A stretch of DNA of 15,775 nt from a virus (lineage: Duplodnaviria > Heunggongvirae > Uroviricota > Caudoviricetes). Under the pieces are notes generated by a model. The model made no database searches, had not been told where the DNA came from, and worked only from the letters and a program-made list of their open reading frames with translations. Below, one piece after another: positions 1 through 15,775 of the stretch; positions within the stretch are counted from its first letter, which is position 1; the number at the start of each line of letters is the position of its first letter. The DNA lies in the IMG/VR virus record IMGVR_UViG_2693429635_000019, positions 1 to 15,775 of that record, one strand, 5' to 3'. Both the position numbers and the translations under genes were made by a program.

Positions 1-1248
1 ATGGCACTGAATATTCCATTCAGAAATGCGTACTATCGTTTTGCATCCAGTTACTCATTTCTCTTTTTTATTTCCTGGTCGCTGTGGTGGTCGTTATACG
101 CTATTTGGCTGAAAGGACATCTAGGGTTGACAGGGACGGAATTAGGTACACTTTATTCGGTCAACCAGTTTACCAGCATTCTATTTATGATGTTCTACGG
201 CATCGTTCAGGATAAACTCGGTCTGAAGAAACCGCTCATCTGGTGTATGAGTTTCATCCTGGTCTTGACCGGACCGTTTATGATTTACGTTTATGAACCG
301 TTACTGCAAAGCAATTTTTCTGTAGGTCTAATTCTGGGGGCGCTATTTTTTGGCTTGGGGTATCTGGCGGGATGCGGTTTGCTTGATAGCTTCACCGAAA
401 AAATGGCGCGAAATTTTCATTTCGAATATGGAACAGCGCGCGCCTGGGGATCTTTTGGCTATGCTATTGGCGCGTTCTTTGCCGGCATATTTTTTAGTAT
501 CAGTCCCCATATCAACTTCTGGTTGGTCTCGCTATTTGGCGCTGTATTTATGATGATCAACATGCGTTTTAAAGATAAGGATCACCAGTGCGTAGCGGCA
601 GATGCGGGAGGGGTAAAAAAAGAGGATTTTATCGCAGTTTTCAAGGATCGAAACTTCTGGGTTTTCGTCATATTTATTGTGGGGACGTGGTCTTTCTATA
701 ACATTTTTGATCAACAACTTTTTCCTGTCTTTTATGCAGGTTTATTCGAATCACACGATGTAGGAACGCGCCTGTATGGTTATCTCAACTCATTCCAGGT
801 GGTACTCGAAGCGCTGTGCATGGCGATTATTCCTTTCTTTGTGAATCGGGTAGGGCCAAAAAATGCATTACTTATCGGAGTTGTGATTATGGCGTTGCGT
901 ATCCTTTCCTGCGCGCTGTTCGTTAACCCCTGGATTATTTCATTAGTGAAGTTGTTACATGCCATTGAGGTTCCACTTTGTGTCATATCCGTCTTCAAAT
1001 ACAGCGTGGCAAACTTTGATAAGCGCCTGTCGTCGACGATCTTTCTGATTGGTTTTCAAATTGCCAGTTCGCTTGGGATTGTGCTGCTTTCAACGCCGAC
1101 TGGGATACTCTTTGACCACGCAGGCTACCAGACAGTTTTCTTCGCAATTTCGGGTATTGTCTGCCTGATGTTGCTATTTGGCATTTTCTTCTTGAGTAAA
1201 AAACGCGAGCAAATAGTTATGGAAACGCCTGTACCTTCAGCAATATAG
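1..1248 (+). CDS. cscB: MFS oligosaccharide:H+ symporter (LacY family), sucrose permease-like; host chromosomal gene
   Basis: 415-aa ORF, ATG at 1, stop TAG 1246-1248; hydrophobic 12-TM-like profile with LacY-family layout; from memory matches E. coli CscB (415 aa, begins MALNIPFRNAYYRF); csc locus is known to lie near argW. Confidence 0.8.
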   Translation: MALNIPFRNAYYRFASSYSFLFFISWSLWWSLYAIWLKGHLGLTGTELGTLYSVNQFTSILFMMFYGIVQDKLGLKKPLIWCMSFILVLTGPFMIYVYEPLLQSNFSVGLILGALFFGLGYLAGCGLLDSFTEKMARNFHFEYGTARAWGSFGYAIGAFFAGIFFSISPHINFWLVSLFGAVFMMINMRFKDKDHQCVAADAGGVKKEDFIAVFKDRNFWVFVIFIVGTWSFYNIFDQQLFPVFYAGLFESHDVGTRLYGYLNSFQVVLEALCMAIIPFFVNRVGPKNALLIGVVIMALRILSCALFVNPWIISLVKLLHAIEVPLCVISVFKYSVANFDKRLSSTIFLIGFQIASSLGIVLLSTPTGILFDHAGYQTVFFAISGIVCLMLLFGIFFLSKKREQIVMETPVPSAI

Positions 1249-1689
1249 ACGTAAACTTTTTCCGGTTGTTGTCGATAGCTCTATATCCCTCAACCGGAAA
1301 ATAATAATAGTAAAATGCTTAGCCCTGCTAATAATCGCCTAATCCAAACGCCTCATTCATGTTCTGGTACAGTCGCTCAAATGTACTTCAGATGCGCGGT
1401 TCGCTGATTTCCAGGACATTGTCGTCATTCAGTGACCTGTCCCGTGTATCACGGTCCTGCGAATTCATCAAGGAATGCATTGCGGAGTGAAGTATCGAGT
1501 CACGCCATATTTCGCTATCAGGATTCTGTGTGATGGTTACATCGCCCGGCTCAGGGCTGTTTAGTCATCAGCGCTTTCTGACAGTGCTGAGATTTCAACC
1601 TGTTGCAGTAAAAATGAGTAGATATAAGGCAAGTGTGCTGCCAAACCCATCTTTTACGGGGTGAAGGTAGATTTCGTTTGAAGGGTATC

Positions 1690-1704
1690 TGGTGTCCCCT
1701 GCAG
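1690..1704 (-). other. tRNA-Arg (argW-type) 3'-terminal fragment CTGCAGGGGACACCA; candidate prophage att core at the host junction
   Basis: Minus strand reads CTGCAGGGGACACCA, equal to the last 15 nt (end of T-stem, acceptor 3' strand, CCA) of argW as I recall it; no tRNA 5' part upstream. Confidence 0.5.
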
Positions 1705-1761
1705 ACATCTACTTGACGAGGCAGGGGATTGATTGGAATGGTGTTTTTTAGATATGAGAAA

Positions 1762-1783
1762 TATTTTACCCGCTATTTTACCC
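1762..1783. repeat. Tandem direct repeat TATTTTACCC x2 (spacer GC) between att core fragment and torI 3' end; candidate recombinase/RDF arm-type binding sites
   Basis: tattttaccc at 1762-1771 and 1774-1783 seen directly; position inside putative attR arm. Confidence 0.35.
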
Positions 1784-1978
1784 ATTGGCGCGGCTTAAGA
1801 GCTTATTTTTGAATTCACAATGGTCACGATATAACCATCTTGCTCGCCCGTGGATAACTTTGGCTTTAGGCAGGTCCCCGGACTTAATCCGGTCATAGAT
1901 GAAGGTTTTACCGAAGCCAGTATCGGCCATGATGAATTTCAAATCAACCAGTGAATCAGGCTGTAGTTCGTGTTGCAT
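1778..1978 (-). CDS. torI: AlpA/TorI-family excisionase (recombination directionality factor)
   Basis: 66-aa ORF, ATG at 1978 with GGAGA RBS 6 nt upstream; sequence MQHELQPDSLVDLKFIMADTGFGKTFIYDRIKSGDLPKAKVIHGRARWLY has AlpA-like winged-helix pattern and matches my recollection of E. coli KplE1 TorI (66 aa). Confidence 0.7.
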   Translation of the reverse strand: MQHELQPDSLVDLKFIMADTGFGKTFIYDRIKSGDLPKAKVIHGRARWLYRDHCEFKNKLLSRANG

Positions 1979-1997
1979 GAGTGCTATCTCCGAATAG

Positions 1998-2013
1998 GGA
2001 ATCGAACCTGCAA
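1998..2013 (-). other. tRNA-Arg (argW-type) T-arm fragment TTGCAGGTTCGATTCC (16 nt), second att-related remnant
   Basis: Minus strand TTGCAGGTTCGATTCC equals argW variable/T-stem/T-loop segment; diverges exactly where fragment 1690-1704 begins in the tRNA. Confidence 0.5.
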
Positions 2014-2824: not shown

Positions 2825-3445
2825 TCAAAGTGGAGGCTCTGGTAGCGGCATCCAGTGTGACGGCTCACATACCCCCTCAACACCATTCATGTAAAAGAAT
2901 TGAAATAACCCTTTACCTTTGTGAAACCCTACCATCTGCTCTTTTGTGTCTGAGCAATAAACCAAAACATCTTCTTCGTTTGGCATTCGATCACTACAGC
3001 TTATCCAACCATCCGGAGTTACCGGAGAGTTGCCAGATAGCTCGTTCAACTTGTAAGTTTGGCTTACAGGTTCGGCACCATGAAGCATGGCGTCGCGGCA
3101 GGAGTTCCAGCCTCTCACCTCTGCAATAGCGGCAACAGCATCGACCGCGTACATTTTAAGAGGGTTAGGCATTGGTTTTTCTTCAGGTACTACTGGCACT
3201 GGAGGGGCGGCATAAACAGGAATAACGTCCGATTGCTCTTTATTGCTTTCATCCGTTAAAGCCCAGAATAATTTCCCAGCCGGATGTTTGAAAATATAAG
3301 CAACCGGTTCTGCTTCCAGCGATGCCAGAGCAATTCGTGCCAGTTCTTCCGCTTCTTCTGCTGGCAGTACAACGTTGCTACCCGGTCCGTATGTTTCGCG
3401 CCACTGCTTGATTGTCAGCAGTCGCTCTTTGGTTATAGTGGTCAT
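2825..3445 (-). CDS. DUF551-domain phage protein, 206 aa
   Basis: ATG at 3445 overlapping upstream stop (ATGA), AAGGA RBS; C-terminus ...WISCSDRMPNEEDVLVY...HWMPLPEPPL matches the DUF551 signature as I remember it. Confidence 0.75.
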   Translation of the reverse strand: MTTITKERLLTIKQWRETYGPGSNVVLPAEEAEELARIALASLEAEPVAYIFKHPAGKLFWALTDESNKEQSDVIPVYAAPPVPVVPEEKPMPNPLKMYAVDAVAAIAEVRGWNSCRDAMLHGAEPVSQTYKLNELSGNSPVTPDGWISCSDRMPNEEDVLVYCSDTKEQMVGFHKGKGLFQFFYMNGVEGVCEPSHWMPLPEPPL

Positions 3446-3957
3446 GCCGCGTTTCCTTCTTTCTTATTAACAATTACACCGTCATATATTTCATTAAGGT
3501 GCCCTCTCAACTCCATGCGCCTTAATGCAGATAACATGTAATCGCATTCAACCTGCTTATTTCCAGTAAATGGCTTATCGTCAGGATTACCCCAACAGCA
3601 ATTACCCTTGGGCCACCCATGTACTTTCCGTACTCTTCCGTTAACAACGTGAAGTAATCCCCAGCCAGGTGGTAAATCCTCAATTGAAATAATTCCCGGC
3701 TCACTAATAAAGAATCGCCAGTCGCCCATGCCAAGTGAGGGATTTTTACGGAAACGCTTTTTTCTATCTGCCAACAAATCAGCACGAGAACACTTCGCCT
3801 CTATCAGGCATGATGCTGAATTTCTGAATCCCATAGCATCTGGCTGTTCTCCGGTACTGGTTACAGCTATAAAGCGGTCATGAAAACAAACCTTGAACCC
3901 GTTGCGCTTAAGGAACTTGTACGCAATCTGACAGAGTTCGCTGTGTGTTAACGCCAT
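3442..3957 (-). CDS. Hypothetical phage protein, 171 aa, with PD-(D/E)XK-like D...EAK signature
   Basis: ORF track 3442-4008 trimmed to ATG at 3957 (upstream extension overlaps preceding gene); motif PDAMGF...CLIEAKCSRADL resembles restriction-endonuclease-fold core. Confidence 0.65.
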   Translation of the reverse strand: MALTHSELCQIAYKFLKRNGFKVCFHDRFIAVTSTGEQPDAMGFRNSASCLIEAKCSRADLLADRKKRFRKNPSLGMGDWRFFISEPGIISIEDLPPGWGLLHVVNGRVRKVHGWPKGNCCWGNPDDKPFTGNKQVECDYMLSALRRMELRGHLNEIYDGVIVNKKEGNAA

Positions 3958-3961
3958 ATCC

Positions 3962-4363
3962 CTAATTCCCCTTGATGCTGACTTTGACGCCAACCTTGCG
4001 AATCTCATCGGCGCATCTGTTCACGATACTCCGGTGAAACTCACAAAAAATTTTCGCCGACTGCGGCCCTAATGGGTGAACATCGTGCGCACGCGGCAGT
4101 ACAACCTCCCGCGCCTCCATGTCAGCAATCCGCTTGTCTTTGGCTTCCAGCTCATCCAGCAGCGCCCGAACTACATCAGCGGTTTTCTGGCACTGGTCAA
4201 CAATGCTAACGTCACAACCAGTATCGAAACCGTCCTCAGTTTCAAAGCGGAGCTCTACAGAGTCGCCGTCGATATCAGATGGTTCGAACCCGGCAATGTT
4301 TTCCAGAATGCCGATTATGCTTTCTGCGCTATGACGTAATGCGCGTTTGTCGATGTTGCTCAT
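3962..4363 (-). CDS. Hypothetical phage early protein, 133 aa (possibly Ea22-like; coiled-coil segment)
   Basis: ATG at 4363 overlapping stop of upstream gene; LDELEAKDKRIADMEA coiled-coil-like stretch; family assignment from memory only. Confidence 0.6.
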   Translation of the reverse strand: MSNIDKRALRHSAESIIGILENIAGFEPSDIDGDSVELRFETEDGFDTGCDVSIVDQCQKTADVVRALLDELEAKDKRIADMEAREVVLPRAHDVHPLGPQSAKIFCEFHRSIVNRCADEIRKVGVKVSIKGN

Positions 4364-7103: not shown

Positions 7104-7123
7104 CCACGCCCTAAAGGGCGTGG
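7104..7123 (-). repeat. Perfect 8-bp stem hairpin (CCACGCCC-TTTA-GGGCGTGG) containing the tnpB stop codon; candidate IS right-end / omega-RNA structural element
   Basis: Inverted repeat seen directly; TAG stop of tnpB at 7111-7113 lies in the loop/stem. Confidence 0.6.
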
Positions 7124-8202
7124 ATTCCTCCTTCGAGACGGCGATGTCCCGCCGCGAGAATGTTCTTTGCCGCGTTTACGTCGCGGTCGTGGAGTTCACC
7201 ACATTCCACGCAGATCCATTCTCTTATTCCAAGGCCTACCCTACCCTTCGGACTACTGCAGCTAATAGCTCCGCAGCACGAGCAAGTCTGGGTGGTGTAC
7301 GCTTCATCTACGACCTCAAAAACCACACTCCGCGCAATCGCTTTATACTGAATCTGATTTTTTAGCTGACACCAGCCGGCGTCGTAGATACTTTTTGCCA
7401 AATTTGTTTTTGATAACTTTTTACTGCTTACGTCGCCTACAAAAATAGCGGCGTATTTATTAACCAGCGCCGTAGAAAACTTATGGTGTGCATCTTTACG
7501 GCGATTTTTGATTTTTGCGTGGATAGCTCTAACACGTTTTTTATTATGGGCACGTTGAGCAATTTTTAATTTGCCTTCTAATTCACGATACCAACGTTTA
7601 GCAGGAAGTTTTTCACCATCCGAAGTGGTGGCAATGTCTTTCAGACCAAGATCGATACCCACGTCGGCAGTGCCTTTAGTTGGTTCGCATTCGTATTCAA
7701 CTGCAACATTGAAATACCAGCGACCGCGCGCATCTTCTGCAAAGTTACCAGCACGGAATTTAAAGCCATTTAATCCATAGCTATCCCACACTTTGAAATA
7801 GTGCCCGGCAAACTTGATGCAGCCGTTTACCCATTTCACTTGAGCACCTTTGAACGGAACCCAACCAAGACTACGCCCAGCACCGCCACTTTTACGCCAG
7901 CGCAGCTTACTGCGTTTAAACTGTTTACGCGCTTTAGCGTGATGTTTTGAGATTTCCTGACAAGTAGCTGCTTGTATGTGGTATCCGCGCTCCTTTTGAA
8001 TACCAGCAATGCGTTTATCTACGTCAAATTCAGTTAACCAAACTCTTTGTTTTGGTCCGTATTCGCTGACAGTGCTGTATTCAGTCGCAGTCATTTCATT
8101 GATAAAGTTAAAAACTTGGTTCACTTCAAAGGCCATCTGACGCAACAAGGCGGCGTGGCGGTCTTTGACGCGTACCTGCAATGTTTTAGTCTGAATAGCC
8201 AT
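7111..8202 (-). CDS. tnpB: TnpB-like protein (IS200/IS605 OrfB family, RuvC-like + zinc finger), 363 aa; RuvC-II catalytic position apparently substituted
   Basis: ATG at 8202 with AAGGGGAG RBS; GIDLGLKD (RuvC-I), AYTTQTCSCCG...CVECG zinc finger, HDRDVNAAKNILAAG (RuvC-III); expected hhhEDLN motif reads AIFVGDVSS. Confidence 0.9.
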   Translation of the reverse strand: MAIQTKTLQVRVKDRHAALLRQMAFEVNQVFNFINEMTATEYSTVSEYGPKQRVWLTEFDVDKRIAGIQKERGYHIQAATCQEISKHHAKARKQFKRSKLRWRKSGGAGRSLGWVPFKGAQVKWVNGCIKFAGHYFKVWDSYGLNGFKFRAGNFAEDARGRWYFNVAVEYECEPTKGTADVGIDLGLKDIATTSDGEKLPAKRWYRELEGKLKIAQRAHNKKRVRAIHAKIKNRRKDAHHKFSTALVNKYAAIFVGDVSSKKLSKTNLAKSIYDAGWCQLKNQIQYKAIARSVVFEVVDEAYTTQTCSCCGAISCSSPKGRVGLGIREWICVECGELHDRDVNAAKNILAAGHRRLEGGIHAL

Positions 8203-11612: not shown

Positions 11613-12489
11613 GTTAGCTGATTACAGGCATAACCCTGTACAACATCAGGAGGCATCCAGTATGGGGTATGTCTCTATACACCGCCAGTTTATGGACAGC
11701 AGGCTCTATAAGGACTCTCAGGCAGTACATCTTTGGCTTCACTTAATCCTCAAGGCTAATCACGAATCTACTGTCGTCAATACGGATATCGGTCCGATAA
11801 CTGTTGATCGCGGTCAGATGATAACTGGACGCCCGTCGCTGGTCAGAGAAACATTCATCCCCGACAACAAAGTTCGGAGCTTATTACGGACTTTTGAGTC
11901 GAAAGGGATGCTTAATATTTCCTCGATGGGGAAGAAATTTAGCCTGTTTACAATCGTTAAATATGACGATTTTCAGGCAAAAAATTGTCCAACGGTTGTC
12001 CAACGGTTGTCCAACGCAAACACCAGTAATGGCGCGGCTCTCAGCGGAGATTGTCCAACGGTTGTCCAACGGTTGTCCATAAACAATAATATAAATAATA
12101 TCTCTAATACTGACGTATTAGGGAGTGCCACAGCAGACAAAAAGTCTGACAAGAAAAAACCTTCCGTTAGCTGTCAGGATGTTGTCGATGCTTACCACGA
12201 AATCCTTCCTGAAGCGCCAAGAATCCGCGCACTGAATGACAAGCGTAAAAACCAGATCCGAACGTTCTGGCGCAAAGCCGGAGTGATAACCCGCCAGCTT
12301 GACGGGCATGGGTTCACGATGCAGGACTGGAGAAATTATTTGAGCTACGTAGGAGAAAATTGCCGATGGATGTTCGAAGAGCGCCCAAACCATCAACGCG
12401 GAACTGTCTGGCACAAAAAGGGATTTGATTTCCTGCTTAACGATAATACCTACCTGAAAGTTCGTGAGGGTGAACACGATGACCGATAA
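11599..12489 (+). CDS. Replication initiator protein (lambda O / P22 gp18 functional analogue) containing the origin iterons
   Basis: 296 aa, ATG 11599 with GGAG RBS; internal direct repeats plus AT-rich tract typical of lambdoid ori inside the initiator gene; followed by DnaB-like helicase. Confidence 0.8.
   Translation: MGVVKLADYRHNPVQHQEASSMGYVSIHRQFMDSRLYKDSQAVHLWLHLILKANHESTVVNTDIGPITVDRGQMITGRPSLVRETFIPDNKVRSLLRTFESKGMLNISSMGKKFSLFTIVKYDDFQAKNCPTVVQRLSNANTSNGAALSGDCPTVVQRLSINNNINNISNTDVLGSATADKKSDKKKPSVSCQDVVDAYHEILPEAPRIRALNDKRKNQIRTFWRKAGVITRQLDGHGFTMQDWRNYLSYVGENCRWMFEERPNHQRGTVWHKKGFDFLLNDNTYLKVREGEHDDR
11985..12080 (+). repeat. Origin iterons: two clusters of TTGTCCAACGG direct repeats (11985-12016 and 12051-12080) followed by an AT-rich unwinding tract (12081-12120)
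   Basis: Repeats read directly: ttgtccaacggttgtccaacggttgtccaacgc ... ttgtccaacggttgtccaacggttgtccat then aaacaataatataaataatatctctaatac. Confidence 0.75.
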
Positions 12490-13915
12490 TTTTTATGCGC
12501 CGCCCCATAGCATCGAGGCAGAGCAGGCGGTGATTGGTGGATTGCTTCTGGATGATGACAGCAGTGAGCGCGTCCAGAAAGTTCTGGCGATGCTGAAGCC
12601 TGATTCATTTTACAGCCGACCACACAAAATCCTTTTCGAAGAAATAACCAGAATGCACCGGGAGCAAAAGCCAGTAGATGGCCTGACGCTTTTCGATGAA
12701 CTGGATCGCAAATCGTTAACGGTGTCTGTTGGCGGTTTTGCTTATATCGCTGAGATCGCAAAGAACACGCCAAGCGCCGCAAACATCGTTGCCTATGCAA
12801 TGCAGGTTCGCGAAACCGCAATGGAACGCTACGCCATCAACCGCATGACTGAAGCGACGGAATTGCTCTATTCCCGCAACGGAATGACTGCAACGCAGAA
12901 GTACGAAGCTATTCAGGCGATTTTCACGCAACTGACAGACCATGCAAAAACCGGATCGCGTCGCGGCCTTCGCTCATTTGGTGAGGTAATGGAAGACTGG
13001 GTTAGCGACCTTGAGAAGCGATTTGACCCGTCAGGCGAACAACGAGGAATGAGCACAGGGATCCCATCGCTGGACAGGATGCTGTCACCGAAAGGTCTGG
13101 TGAAAGGCTCTCTGTTTGTCATTGGCGCTCGCCCTAAGATGGGGAAAACGACGCTATACAGCCAGATGGCAATCAACTGCGCAGTGCATGAGAAAAAGCC
13201 CGCTCTGATGTTCAGCCTTGAAATGCCCGGTGACCAGATACTGGAAAAACTGGTAGGACAGAAGTCAGGTGTTAACCCGAATATTTTTTACCTTCCGGCG
13301 ACAAATGACGCTGATGACGGCTATCAGGGTGATTACGATGGTGACTTCAACAGGGCGATCGAAACAGCCAATCGCTTGAGTGAAATCGACATGCTTTACA
13401 TCGACGACACGCCGGGATTATCTCTGGCTCAAATCGTCAGCGAAAGCCGTCGAATCAAGCGAGAAAAAGGATGTGTTGGCATGATTCTGGTCGATTACCT
13501 GACACTAATGACCGCTGAGAAGGCCGATCGCAACGACCTTGCTTACGGCATGATCACCAAAGGACTGAAGAACCTTGCCAAAGAGCTTGATTGCGTTGTT
13601 GTGCTTCTGACGCAGCTTAACCGCGCACTGGAAAGCCGAACCAATAAACGCCCACTACCAAGTGACTCACGAGATACAGGGCAGATTGAACAGGATTGCG
13701 ATTATTGGGTGGGGATCCATCGTGAAGGTGCTTTTGATGACAGTGTTCCACCTGGTGAAACCGAACTAATCCTTCGTCTCAATCGTCATGGCAATACCGG
13801 CACGGTGTATTGCATTCAGGCAAATGGCGCTATTTATGACACAGACCAACAGTCTGCTGAAATGCGCCGCCGTGAACGCGAGGAACCGCAGTCCAAGAAG
13901 AAAGGAGGATTCTGA
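12479..13915 (+). CDS. Replicative DNA helicase, DnaB family (P22 gp12-like)
   Basis: 478 aa from ATG 12479 (GAGGGTG RBS; GTG 12464 alternative); DnaB N-terminal motif PPHSIEAEQAVIGGLLLD, Walker A GARPKMGKT, RecA-like C-domain. Confidence 0.9.
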   Translation: MTDNFYAPPHSIEAEQAVIGGLLLDDDSSERVQKVLAMLKPDSFYSRPHKILFEEITRMHREQKPVDGLTLFDELDRKSLTVSVGGFAYIAEIAKNTPSAANIVAYAMQVRETAMERYAINRMTEATELLYSRNGMTATQKYEAIQAIFTQLTDHAKTGSRRGLRSFGEVMEDWVSDLEKRFDPSGEQRGMSTGIPSLDRMLSPKGLVKGSLFVIGARPKMGKTTLYSQMAINCAVHEKKPALMFSLEMPGDQILEKLVGQKSGVNPNIFYLPATNDADDGYQGDYDGDFNRAIETANRLSEIDMLYIDDTPGLSLAQIVSESRRIKREKGCVGMILVDYLTLMTAEKADRNDLAYGMITKGLKNLAKELDCVVVLLTQLNRALESRTNKRPLPSDSRDTGQIEQDCDYWVGIHREGAFDDSVPPGETELILRLNRHGNTGTVYCIQANGAIYDTDQQSAEMRRREREEPQSKKKGGF

Positions 13916-13943
13916 TGACCATCTACATCACTGAGCTAATAAC

Positions 13944-13975
13944 AGGCCTGCTGGTAATCGCAGGCCTTTTTATTT
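13944..13975 (+). terminator. Rho-independent terminator-like hairpin after helicase gene
   Basis: AGGCCTGC-TGGTAATC-GCAGGCCT followed by TTTTTATTT; overlaps a possible 27-aa ORF (13915-13998). Confidence 0.5.
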
Positions 13976-13990
13976 GGGGGAGAGTAAATC

Positions 13991-14197
13991 GTGGCTGAGT
14001 TTATGCTCGTCGCATTCAAATGCGTTGGCGTTGGATGGATTCTTCTGACGTTTTTTATTGTTCTGCGTAGCTACATTCGTCTTGTGAATGACGGCAAAGA
14101 CCCATGGTATACGTTGTTTGGCGCTGCATTTGTCTGGGTGATTATCGGTGTTATGCCTGTTGTCGTAGCAAAAATGGCGTGGCGTTTTGTGAGTTGA
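13991..14197 (+). CDS. Small membrane protein 1 (2 TM), 68 aa
   Basis: GTG at 13991 preceded by GGGGGAGAG (ATG 14003 alternative); two hydrophobic helices. Confidence 0.45.
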   Translation: MAEFMLVAFKCVGVGWILLTFFIVLRSYIRLVNDGKDPWYTLFGAAFVWVIIGVMPVVVAKMAWRFVS

Positions 14198-14214
14198 ACT
14201 GAGGGTAAGTATCG

Positions 14215-14481
14215 ATGGACGAATCAAGAAAGCAGTTTGAAGAATGGTTTGAAAATTACACCGGATGTGATCCTAAAAATAAAATATACGCCAATATGGT
14301 TGAGATGTATTGGCAAGCGTGGCAGGCATCGCGAGCAGCTATCGAGATTGAGTGTCCTGGAAAAAGAGAGCGTGAGGCATTTTCTACCGATTTCGAGGAT
14401 GGGGTCACATTTGGTTATAACGACGCAATTAGTGAATGCGAAGGACGGATTCGCGCTGCTGGAGTCAAAGTGAAGGGGTGA
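14215..14481 (+). CDS. Hypothetical protein, 88 aa, paralog A (N-terminus MDESRKQFEE, motif WQASRAAIE)
   Basis: ATG 14215; shares start sequence and internal motifs with CDS 14939-15295. Confidence 0.6.
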   Translation: MDESRKQFEEWFENYTGCDPKNKIYANMVEMYWQAWQASRAAIEIECPGKREREAFSTDFEDGVTFGYNDAISECEGRIRAAGVKVKG

Positions 14482-14483
14482 GC

Positions 14484-14669
14484 ATGAGTCGACGAAGTAG
14501 CTTTTTGGGGTTTGTAATATTCCTGTTCTGCACTGGTTACATCGTAATCTGGTCAATTTCGAACATTGACCGTGGCGGGGAATATCTCATTGTAATGTTC
14601 TTTCCTTTGTTTCTTGGGTGGTACGCCGCAAGGTTGCTGGAAGAATGGGGTTACAGGCATAAAAAATAA
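14484..14669 (+). CDS. Small membrane protein 2 (2 TM), 61 aa
   Basis: ORF track 14436-14669 trimmed to ATG 14484 with AAGGGG RBS, directly after stop of paralog A. Confidence 0.5.
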   Translation: MSRRSSFLGFVIFLFCTGYIVIWSISNIDRGGEYLIVMFFPLFLGWYAARLLEEWGYRHKK

Positions 14670-14728
14670 AGGAGTGTTCAGTGAAGCAAACCCTTTTTTA
14701 TTGGATTAAGAGCGAGTGGTAAGTACCG

Positions 14729-14911
14729 ATGGTAAATGCATTTATTTGTAGTTTATTTCTTGTCGCGATTTTTCATGGATTCCTTCTGATGATGAGTTTT
14801 GTTCTCTGGAATAATGGATATCGCATATTGGGAGTAGGTTTTGTTTTACGGTTTTCAGTTGTCTGCGCGTTGCTACCGATAATTATGGCGACTATCAAAT
14901 ATTATTGGTAA
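14729..14911 (+). CDS. Small membrane protein 3 (2 TM), 60 aa
   Basis: ATG 14729; hydrophobic; upstream sequence GGTAAGTACCGATGG repeats the sequence preceding paralog A (GGTAAGTATCGATGG). Confidence 0.45.
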   Translation: MVNAFICSLFLVAIFHGFLLMMSFVLWNNGYRILGVGFVLRFSVVCALLPIIMATIKYYW

Positions 14912-14938
14912 CCCAAAAAATCATCGATGGAGAGTGAT

Positions 14939-15295
14939 ATGGACGAATCAAGAAAGCAGTTTGAGGAATACGTTGCCAAAAAATTGAGATTACCATTCGA
15001 GATGATAACCGAGGCAAGAAATGGTGATAGGTACTTCGCATTTTCAAGCATGGATATTCGTCACTCCTTAAATGAGTGGTGGACTTTATGGCAGGCATCG
15101 CGAGCAGCTATTGAACTGGATATCGACTGGCCAGAATCGAATGACGACTTTTGGAAAGATGGTGAAGAAGGTGCTTATGCGATGGGTTATGAGGATGGGC
15201 GTGACAAAACGGTAATTGCAGTAATGAAAGCTATCAGAGCCGCTGGAATTAAAGAGAAGAATTTCGATGAAGCAAACAATCTTCCTCCGAAGTAA
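14939..15295 (+). CDS. Hypothetical protein, 118 aa, paralog B (N-terminus MDESRKQFEE, motif WQASRAAIE)
   Basis: ORF track 14927-15295 trimmed to ATG 14939 (GGAGAG RBS) where nucleotide identity with paralog A start begins. Confidence 0.6.
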   Translation: MDESRKQFEEYVAKKLRLPFEMITEARNGDRYFAFSSMDIRHSLNEWWTLWQASRAAIELDIDWPESNDDFWKDGEEGAYAMGYEDGRDKTVIAVMKAIRAAGIKEKNFDEANNLPPK

Positions 15296-15677
15296 GCAAC
15301 AACAGCAAGCCGCAATAAATGCCATCCTCGCAACACCACTCGATAAAGACAAGCCAGTCACCATCCGCATTACTGACTACAAGCGCAACCTTGACCAGAA
15401 CGCAAAATTTCACGCGATGCTGGCGGATATCGCTCGTCAGGTTCAATGGTGCGGCAAATGGTTAAAACCGGAACAATGGAAGGTTTTGTTGATCAGCGGT
15501 CATGCAGTGGCAACAAAACAGGAAGCTGATGTTTTGCCCGGGCTTGAAGGCGAATACGTCAACATTCGCGAAAGTAGCGCGCAGATGAGTGTGAAGCGTA
15601 TGGCAAGTCTGATTGAGTACACGACAGCATGGGCTATTGGTCAGGGTGTCAGATTTACCGACAGGAGGTACGAATGA
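15267..15677 (+). CDS. ninB: NinB-family recombination protein
   Basis: 136 aa; pattern [32 protein letters not shown]...EQWK matches lambda NinB (ERNRSLDQNRKLWACLGDVSRQVEWHGRWL) from memory; overlaps preceding gene by 29 nt. Confidence 0.8.
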
Positions 15678-15775
15678 GACGACAGCGACGAAGTTTCACC
15701 GACATCATCTGCGAAAACTGCAAATACCTTCCAACGAAACGCTCCAGAAATAAACGCAAGCCAATCCCAAAAGAA
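15674..15775 (+). CDS. NinE-like protein, 5' partial (truncated by window end)
   Basis: ATG 15674 overlapping ninB stop (ATGA), AGGAGG RBS; [34 protein letters not shown] resembles NinE as I recall it. Confidence 0.5.

Follow-up and report, generated by a model that had tools for sequence, protein, structure and literature searches.

A probable tandem of two accessory-gene slot versions between the helicase gene and ninB of an Escherichia coli lambdoid prophage

The nin region of lambdoid phages (ren and ninA to ninH in lambda; ninA, B, D, E, X, F and others in P22) has been described as 'typically mosaic' and 'exceptionally tightly packed' (PMC8022706, PMC2629481). In the window analysed here, which is the whole stretch of 15,775 nucleotides of viral DNA, 1.27 kb with five extra genes is inserted between ninA and ninB: two copies of a catalogued small phage protein and three mutually unrelated tiny membrane proteins. 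How did these genes come to stand side by side, and what may they do? A preliminary description, made from the sequence alone, had read the interval as the duplication of a two-gene module. We consider a different account likely, namely that the helicase-ninB interval of this E. coli lambdoid prophage consists of two alternative versions of a hypervariable accessory-gene slot in tandem. This grading is a joint one, covering the slot, the tandem join, the shuffling of modules and the reading of the soluble proteins as lytic-phase binding proteins.

Genes of the interval

The genes and the terminator of the interval are listed here.

13915..13998, + strand: ninA-like hydrophobic ORF of 27 aa (MTIYITELITGLLVIAGLFIWGRVNRG; phrog_5907, E 1e-18; translation)
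13944..13967, + strand: tR2-type intrinsic terminator hairpin, then a T-run (terminator scan; HK620 has tR2 at the homologous place)
13991..14197, + strand: TM1, 68 aa, two transmembrane segments, PHROG 1165 (phrog_1165, E 1.7e-38)
14215..14481, + strand: solA, acidic protein of 88 aa, PF26207 / PHROG 343, N-module type 2, C-module type 3 (phrog_343)
14484..14669, + strand: TM2, 61 aa, two transmembrane segments, narrow family (hydrophobic segments, dN/dS)
14729..14911, + strand: TM3, 60 aa, two transmembrane segments (hydrophobic segments, context)
14939..15295, + strand: solB, acidic protein of 118 aa, PF26207 / PHROG 343, N-module type 0, C-module type 2 (phrog_343)
15267..15677, + strand: ninB, Orf-family recombination mediator, right border of the slot (Pfam NinB, E 1e-55)

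The run ninA, TM1, solA, TM2, a mini-ORF, TM3, solB and ninB is tightly packed, with intergenic gaps of -29 to +27 nt, and is probably translationally coupled. GC content is 37-45% in the slot vs ~50% in the flanks. The first ORF shares 1 nt with the helicase stop and 8 nt with the start of TM1. It was this 27-aa ORF, not TM1, that we compared with NinA of P22 and HK620 (~26 aa), and like these it is hydrophobic, starts where the helicase gene stops and has the tR2 hairpin inside it. The surroundings are those of a nin region. As there, the place is behind tR2 in the delayed-early operon read from pR, the genes are small and non-essential and overlap or abut at their stops and starts, mosaicism is pervasive, and the terminator lies within a ninA ORF. 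No Rfam family matched at the gathering score, and matches at E up to 1 were at chance level, a tRNA search found none, and the four minus-strand ORFs overlapping the region had no PHROG match.

The three small ORFs with two transmembrane segments named in the preliminary description are present (GRAVY 0.46-1.52). Two hydrophobic segments each were scored in the window copies of TM1 and TM3, and for TM2 in copies 98-100% identical elsewhere, the window copy having been missed by the survey. Homology among TM1, TM2 and TM3 was rejected, as pairwise comparison shows no similarity. The proposed HMM searches of the soluble and membrane proteins returned phrog_343 twice and phrog_1165 for TM1, and found no family for TM2 or TM3 in Pfam, NCBIfam or PHROG. 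PHROG 343 has no assigned function and PHROG 1165 carries no functional category, in keeping with the earlier statement that no function could be assigned from the sequence. Class II holin genes would be expected beside an endolysin gene in a lysis cassette; the TM genes lie in the nin region, and Pfam gave sub-threshold, non-holin matches only for their products.

Are all three membrane ORFs genes? Judged by dN/dS, TM1 and TM2 are. TM1, found in 107 phage records, has values of 0.30-0.33 against 57%-identical variants, and TM2 a value of 0.19 against a 72%-identical variant at dS near 1, vs 0.79 and 1.9 in the other frames. For TM3 the ratio, calculated from too few substitutions to be decisive, is 0.55-0.85 and no different from the other frames. 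This last result, the lack of family matches, the very narrow distribution (four clusters in a database of 5.8 billion for TM2, and three clusters for TM3) and the fact that PGAP leaves both unannotated are what one would expect if TM2 and/or TM3 were chance hydrophobic ORFs in an AT-rich spacer and only TM1 and the two PF26207 genes were functional. We regard this as unlikely: besides the constraint on TM2, both ORFs remain open in all variants, are equipped with ribosome-binding regions and lie close to their neighbours (TM2 begins 2 nt past the solA stop), and the substitutions in TM3 are conservative hydrophobic swaps. TM3 is probably coding.

The PF26207 family and its invariant patches

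The soluble genes solA and solB are paralogs, as first proposed, with a common MDESRKQFEE start, a common WQASRAAIE motif and 35% identity (BLASTP, E 2e-13). By profile comparison (phrog_343, E 5.4e-29 for solA and 5.2e-31 for solB), both are members of Pfam PF26207 (Phage_phiTE_015) / PHROG 343, a large family in phages of Enterobacterales. PF26207 is precomputed on a protein 99% identical to solB (P0001) and on 120 of the 120 homologues listed, and PGAP names a gene identical to solB 'phiTE_015 family protein'. A Pfam-A scan, with a set that is without the PF26207 model, gave no match for the five small proteins or for 109 family members; NCBIfam likewise had no match for the five.

A profile search found 891 representatives of 50%-identity clusters, and a search of genome contigs with a shallower alignment returned eight loci. 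Family examples are gene 48 of Sf6 and hypothetical proteins of 933W, HK022, mEp213 and mEp235. The family is acidic (median pI 4.9; solA 4.74), and solA and solB share its length of 88-118 aa, its motifs (N-terminal SRxxFE, central WxAWQASR, C-terminal AAG(I/V)KVK) and its location between the replication genes and ninB, which is kept in Hafnia, Atlantibacter, Shimwellia, Erwinia and Pseudocitrobacter. In alignments A1 and A2, F8, W36 and G83 are invariant, and R5, E9, W33, A38, S39, R40 and K87 are conserved at 90% or more. In solB, IKEK replaces the IKVK of the C-terminal motif. Unlike the family at large, solB carries a tail of 10 residues that is the 5' end of ninB read out of frame, the two genes overlapping by 29 nt; an alternative in-frame ATG of solB lies at 14927.

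The AlphaFold2 model of solA is confident (pLDDT 94.8), and that of solB, built on a shallow alignment, mediocre (pLDDT 68). Searches of the PDB and BFVD with the solA model gave insignificant matches only, so that no enzyme fold was recognised, and no nucleic-acid-binding fold was detected in them. The solB model had nothing in BFVD at E <= 0.001 (Foldseek), and the best return of a sequence-profile search of the PDB had an E of 3.2. We rejected, on comparison, a kinship of the family to the DUF551 protein of the window or to its 188-aa early-left ORF (3442-4008). P22 EaD, an Ead/Ea22-like early-left protein, has a C-terminal stretch of ~70 residues ending in AGIKVKGE that is weakly similar to the C-terminal half of solA (pairwise E 0.002; hhalign probability 24%). 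This similarity is marginal and does not reach beyond the tail module, and EaD differs in its length (197 aa), its coiled-coil N-terminal part and its place in the early-left operon. Those who annotated phage Gally have also pointed out the EaD resemblance.

At the DNA level, the two genes share one patch at their starts (14215-14245 and 14939-14969, 30 of 31 nt matching) and another inside them (25 of 26 nt).

14320..14345, + strand: 26-nt invariant patch encoding WQASRAAIE, second copy at 15089-15114 (repeat comparison, module typing)

The patches are nearly invariant even at synonymous sites; one identical 27-mer encodes WQASRAAIE in 65 of the 81 family genes that were typed. These 81 genes fall into 6 N-types and 9 C-types in 15 combinations, and solA/solB chimeras exist in both reciprocal forms. 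The typing suggests that each soluble protein is composed of a variable N-module and a variable C-module, flanked and separated by near-invariant DNA, and that homologous recombination at the patches would reassort modules and whole genes. On this sequence evidence, the WQASRAAIE patch is the crossover point between N- and C-modules. The earlier view of an interval reshuffled by recombination, with short conserved junction sequences taking part, holds.

Slot occupancy, expression and possible roles

The tR2-ninB interval is a variable slot in lambdoid and P22-like phages. In P22 it is empty, and ninA, likewise with the terminator inside, abuts ninB, whereas the window would hold two alternative fillings in tandem. 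HK620 has TM1 followed by ninB without a soluble gene, and its ninA is annotated at the position of our 13915-13998 ORF. In lambda, only ren is known to stand before tR2. Among 80 IMG/VR loci we found at least eight arrangements; since the loci were picked by similarity to solB, the frequencies of these arrangements are biased. Further occupants of the slot belong to PHROGs 1785, 7185 and 5903, which have no functional assignment, and PF26207 genes are combined with two NinB types just 35% identical to each other. The catalogued nature of these nin-region families answers only in part to one outcome that the preliminary description had said would count against it; the established function that it had named along with this is not attached to them.

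A simple consensus scan of 13700-15775 found no sigma-70-like promoter on the + strand, a crude test that leaves room for a weak internal one, and tR2, upstream of the slot, was the only confident terminator. Located past tR2 in an operon under repressor control, the genes are not expected to be expressed in the lysogen. Transcription would start from pR alone and pass tR2 by N-mediated read-through, i.e. during lytic growth. Our best guess for the PF26207 proteins, held with low confidence, is a lytic-phase binding protein: small and acidic, they would bind a protein of the host or of a competitor, and their specificity would lie in the exchangeable modules. This binding or anti-host idea draws only on how small, acidic and variable the proteins are and on when they would be made. 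The membrane proteins would be independent accessory proteins rather than toxin partners. A literature search on PF26207/PHROG 343, the protein motif and the accessions returned nothing on function, and these genes go unmentioned in the phage accessory-gene screen of Silas et al.

A bolder version, which we find doubtful, makes the PF26207 proteins two-module specificity proteins (e.g. inhibitors of host defence or of rival phages) with the patches as built-in crossover points and the tandem as a live intermediate. The putative crossover patches, invariant at synonymous sites, are the initial 27-31 nt and the 26-27 nt that encode WQASRAAIE. If this were true, the tandem would be reduced to single-copy arrangements and chimeras when its 31-nt or its 26-nt repeats, which lie 724-769 nt apart, recombine, and a conserved partnership of TM3 with the soluble gene would add a membrane-linked variant. 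Products of the collapse type, TM1-solB-ninB and the N-module of solA fused to the C-module of solB, are actually observed.

The preliminary description had put the duplicated membrane-soluble module forward as a candidate superinfection-exclusion, abortive-infection or toxin-antitoxin-like pair. An ORF with two transmembrane segments does immediately precede each soluble gene in the window and about half of those surveyed, and in every locus seen TM3 lies directly upstream of a PF26207 gene, so that a functional link between these two may exist. However, no two of the three membrane proteins are homologous, TM2 sits after a soluble gene and not before it, TM1 occurs alone in HK620, and the upstream neighbour of the soluble gene, where it is not TM1 or TM3, is often one of three non-membrane ORFs (66-73 aa). 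The pairing is therefore largely not conserved across phages, an outcome that the description itself had set against its proposal. Toxin-antitoxin or abortive-infection genes should form an obligately linked, conserved pair or match a known defence family, and none of the five proteins had a PADLOC match at E up to 1. Because the pairing is not obligate, no defence match or + strand promoter-like site was found and the genes lie behind tR2, all three functions are unsupported, and we consider the proposal improbable.

Improbable too is the idea that PF26207 proteins assist the NinB/Orf recombination pathway as accessory factors. It would explain both the overlap of solB with ninB and the position of the gene immediately, or one small gene, upstream of ninB in E. 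coli, Salmonella, Hafnia and others. Against it, P22 and HK620, and to our knowledge lambda as well, have NinB without a PF26207 gene, the family is combined with two divergent NinB types, and the fold searches pointed to no nucleic-acid-binding fold; lambdoid operons in general keep their gene order.

The join and the probable origin of the tandem

Three further features of the interval are the following.

14204..14218, + strand: start-region motif, copy 1 (GGTAAGTATCG-ATGG; whole GGTAAGTATCGATGG), ribosome-binding region and ATG of solA
14681..14722, + strand: 13-codon fusion ORF (VKQTLFYWIKSEW and stop; junction alignments, translation compared with loci L001 and L011)
14718..14732, + strand: start-region motif, copy 2 (GGTAAGTACCG-ATGG; whole GGTAAGTACCGATGG), carrying the TM3 start

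The 15-nt motif recurs as first described, at the coordinates given here and not from 14203 and 14717, and none of 200 window shuffles gave a match to it. A fourth repeat, overlooked before like the ninA-like ORF and the fusion ORF, is the ninB start (14677-14691 and 15263-15277). In the fusion ORF, ninB codons 1-4 (GTG start, AAGGAG ribosome-binding site) are in frame with the last nine codons of a variant ninA, and from 14692 the DNA continues as the 3' half of a variant tR2 terminator. In single-copy phages, TM2 is followed by GTGAAGCAAACAATATTCC (ninB), and TM3 is preceded by tR2' with GTAGCCCTTTTTTATTGG. Aligned to these, the window reads GTGAAGCAAAC up to 14691 and CCTTTTTTATTGG from 14692.

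A 141-nt probe spanning the join matched over its full length in 56 of the 5426 complete E. coli genomes and, among the records listed, partial matches break at query nt 62, which is window position 14691. The same double order occurs in independently assembled DNA, namely the complete genomes SJC33 and OkiPb01684 and two IMG/VR contigs (L008, L044). Several related prophages per E. coli genome are frequent, and up to five matching places per genome can mislead short-read assembly, but these recurrences make it very improbable that the tandem is an artefact in which assembly merged two lambdoid prophages of the same host. The survey of copy number that had been suggested found single- and double-copy arrangements; two copies per operon are rare in the family (2 of the 5426 genomes).

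Returning to two slot versions in tandem, the parents would be a tR2-TM1-sol-TM2-ninB phage and a tR2'-TM3-sol-ninB phage. An illegitimate, out-of-register crossover with at most 1 nt of microhomology would have joined nt 11 of ninB from the first parent to the T-tract half of the terminator from the second. This would have destroyed that terminator and left the in-frame ninB'::ninA' ORF, which ends 6 nt before TM3. Since the membrane proteins are mutually unrelated, the duplication covers the soluble gene only. It is not a two-gene module that was doubled; two whole tR2-ninB versions joined head to tail account for two soluble copies and three membrane proteins. The order of events, a single join and then swapping of the flanks, is what we infer from present-day arrangements.

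Morons of lambdoid phages, reportedly described by Juhala et al. in 2000, are likewise extra genes of lower GC content between conserved genes that vary among related phages, and arrival by illegitimate recombination is probably a further likeness to the slot genes. Classical morons, each with a promoter and a terminator of its own, are expressed in the prophage state. In contrast, the slot showed no + strand promoter-like site, and its sole confident terminator is the upstream tR2.

Aside from the detail of the join and the PF26207 family, the locus is an ordinary case of phage mosaicism. The family is large, confidently foldable, acidic and modular and has no PDB or BFVD relative, and for this it may reasonably be put forward for screens of anti-host or anti-defence activity. 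The locus offers a base-resolved example of how lambdoid mosaicism arises, in which an illegitimate join exactly at a gene start and a terminator would be followed by homologous shuffling at patches between and within genes.

Gene content of the helicase-ninB interval

The window represents the left half of a P22/HK620-like lambdoid prophage of E. coli. Behind the excisionase gene, the early-left genes include an ERF recombinase gene and a TnpB gene, and they are followed by N, an S24-type repressor gene, cII, a replication protein gene and a DnaB-type helicase gene. The region under study is the 1.3 kb separating the helicase gene from ninB. All elements named in the preliminary description (ORFs, repeats, junction motif, hydrophobic ORFs) were found in the window; it had missed a ninA-like ORF, a 13-codon ORF and a fourth repeat, which is the start of ninB.

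Features of the window
1-1248, host MFS transporter gene (oligosaccharide)
1778-1978, minus strand, torI-like excisionase gene, directly after the transporter gene
12464-13915, DnaB-type helicase gene
13915-13998, ninA-like hydrophobic ORF, 27 aa, phrog_5907
13991-14197, TM1, two hydrophobic segments scored in the window
14215-14481, solA, soluble protein of 88 aa
14484-14669, TM2, two hydrophobic segments scored in 98-100% identical copies of other loci
14677-14691 and 15263-15277, fourth repeat
14681-14722, 13-codon ORF
14729-14911, TM3, two hydrophobic segments scored in the window
14939-15295, solB, soluble protein of 118 aa
15267-15677, ninB

No integrase gene lies between the transporter and excisionase genes (window 1-2000); presumably it either lies at the opposite end of the prophage or is absent. 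Within the early-left operon, the ERF recombinase gene and N flank a gene (7111-8202, minus strand) for a 363-aa TnpB/Cas12f1-like protein with OrfB_IS605 and TNB domains; a related prophage of E. coli strain A2 has this gene in the corresponding position. Minus-strand ORFs of the region gave no family match, and Rfam families and tRNAs were absent.

The ninA-like ORF runs through the tR2 hairpin (13944-13967) and shares 1 nt with the helicase stop and 8 nt with the start of TM1. Where a phage has the variant terminator, the ORF stops 6 nt short of TM3. It resembles a leader peptide coupling translation across the terminator.

The two soluble proteins both match PHROG 343 (E 5e-29 for solA, 5e-31 for solB), and for all their close homologues the precomputed Pfam assignment is PF26207 (Phage_phiTE_015); PGAP calls an identical gene 'phiTE_015 family protein'. 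The family is large (891 representatives of 50%-identity clusters in a profile search) and includes Sf6 gene 48 and hypothetical proteins of 933W, HK022, mEp213 and mEp235. In Hafnia, Atlantibacter, Shimwellia, Erwinia and Pseudocitrobacter the family gene again lies past the replication genes, just before ninB. The proteins are acidic, with pI 4.74 (solA) and 4.77 (solB) against a family median of 4.9, and 81% of members fall below pI 6. No function for PF26207 or PHROG 343 was found in the literature and databases searched.

TM1 belongs to PHROG 1165, a family without assigned function found in 107 phage records, and its dN/dS of 0.30-0.33 indicates purifying selection. TM2 has only four clusters in a database of 5.8 billion clusters. 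Its dN/dS of 0.19 at a dS near 1 (against a 72%-identical variant) shows that it is a real gene. For TM3, with three clusters, coding status is probable rather than proven, because its dN/dS of 0.55-0.85 is uninformative. Comparison of the three membrane proteins with one another revealed no similarity.

A combinatorial slot and the join of two of its versions

The nin region has been described as typically mosaic and exceptionally tightly packed (PMC8022706, PMC2629481). The proteins of the window were mapped onto 80 IMG/VR loci that we collected, as well as onto a number of annotated phages and genomes; the interval from tR2 to ninB proves to be a combinatorial slot.

Arrangements between tR2 and ninB
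P22: ninA then ninB directly (empty slot)
HK620: TM1-ninB
Many loci: TM1-sol-ninB
Some loci: TM3-sol-ninB
Phage Gally: TM3-sol-TM2-ninB
vB_EcoP-611R6: TM1-sol-TM2-ninB
O26 and O103 prophages: DUF7301 protein, then TM2-TM3-sol-ninB
Many loci: non-membrane ORF of 66-73 aa (PHROG 1785 or 7185) ahead of the sol gene

The complete double arrangement is rare, occurring in 2 of 5426 complete genomes and in two IMG/VR contigs (L008 and L044), one of which (L008) has the same order as the window with all products 92-100% identical. Its presence in independent assemblies rules out an assembly artefact. Near-identical copies of this enterobacterial phage slot also stand on two contigs assigned to Collinsella and Bacillota MAGs (L096, L097), for which mis-binning of phage contigs is the probable explanation.

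Single-copy phages have TAAAGGAGTGTTCA-GTGAAGCAAACAATATTCC after TM2 (ninB, starting with GTG), and TM3 in such phages is preceded by the variant terminator ...AGGGGCTATTTACACAGTAGCCCTTTTTTATTGGATTAAGAGCGAGGGGTAAGTACCG-ATG. The window reads GTGAAGCAAAC|CCTTTTTTATTGG... at the corresponding place; from this comparison we conclude that ninB contributes its first 11 nt, and the variant terminator its 3' half, to a fusion at 14691|14692. The join is in frame, and the resulting 13-codon ORF, VKQT-LFYWIKSEW*, is made up of ninB codons 1-4 and the terminal nine codons of the variant ninA (MTIYITELITGAIYTVALFYWIKSEG*), stopping 6 nt upstream of the TM3 start. A 141-nt probe spanning the join matched over its full length in 56 of 5426 complete E. 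coli genomes, and partial matches among the records listed break at query position 62, which is window position 14691. The window thus contains two alternative whole-slot versions in head-to-tail order, connected by an illegitimate crossover that involved no more than 1 base of microhomology, and not the duplicated two-gene module proposed earlier.

Module exchange within PF26207 genes

solA and solB share the MDESRKQFEE start and WQASRAAIE and are 35% identical (E 2e-13). Their likeness at the DNA level consists of near-identical patches of 30/31 nt (14215 and 14939) and 25/26 nt (14320 and 15089). Across the 81 PF26207 genes of the collected loci, the first 27 nt are identical in 73 and differ by a single base in five more, and one identical 27-mer encodes WQASRAAIE, synonymous sites included, in 65. 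The N-terminal variable segment is of six types and the C-terminal one of nine, in 15 combinations. Both reciprocal chimeras occur elsewhere: P0016-P0031 join a solB N-part (94-100% identical) to a solA C-part (94-98%), and P0010, P0018 and P0024 join a solA N-part (97-100%) to a solB-like C-part (84-87%). Given these near-invariant patches, recombined modules and chimeras, the repeats noticed initially are recombination anchors of PF26207.

The junction motif (14204-14218 and 14718-14732; no matches in 200 shuffles of the window) recurs as GGTAAGTAYCG-ATGG, a shared translation-start region. A diverged TM3 variant (L061) retains it as GGGTAAGCACTG-ATGG, and a shorter piece, ATCGATGGA, recurs at an alternative solB start at 14923. 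Out-of-frame reading of the first 29 nt of ninB (15267-15295) supplies the final 10 residues of solB; since other members stop at ...AAGIKVK(E/G), this tail is a by-product of fusion to this ninB type.

A 59-aa protein (MTEELCRSKFEEWQ...WIGWQAAW; L089 3829-4008) resembles the PF26207 N-terminal half standing alone, and its gene adjoins a full-length member on the upstream side. Roughly one in ten family members (e.g. P0070, P0131, P0162) has a Cys-rich N-terminal extension of ~35 residues (CxxCxGxG...CxC) that resembles a zinc ribbon and is included in the PHROG 343 profile (positions 1-35). The ~70 C-terminal residues of P22 EaD (L104 24906-25499, minus strand; ending ...GFTQCMSAYSTRAGIKVKGE) are weakly similar to the solA C-module and have the AGIKVKGE tail in common with it, which hints at a tail module common to early-left and early-right accessory proteins.

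Expression and possible roles

The slot genes lie directly behind tR2, no promoter-like site for them was found on the plus strand, they are closely spaced (intergenic distances of -29 to +27 nt), and their GC content is 37-45% compared with about 50% in the flanks. These features point to transcription from pR after N-dependent read-through, in lytic growth. Together with the lack of PADLOC matches and the non-obligate pairing of the genes, they argue against toxin-antitoxin, abortive-infection or prophage-expressed exclusion functions. A weaker alternative, that the PF26207 protein is a NinB cofactor, conflicts with the presence of NinB without a PF26207 gene in P22 and HK620, and with the occurrence of the family beside two NinB types only 35% identical.

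Both gene families of the slot with a wide distribution already have PHROG entries, and one of them has a Pfam entry too. Specific to this case are the uncommon tandem state, an explanatory junction resolved to the base, and clear evidence for module shuffling within PF26207. It seems improbable that invariant patches and tandem state work together as a system that shuffles cassettes for a specificity protein. Somewhat less doubtful, and still of low confidence, is our best functional guess: PF26207 proteins would be small binding proteins of the lytic phase whose specificity modules can be exchanged and whose targets may be host or rival-phage factors, and the 2-TM proteins would be independent accessory membrane proteins.
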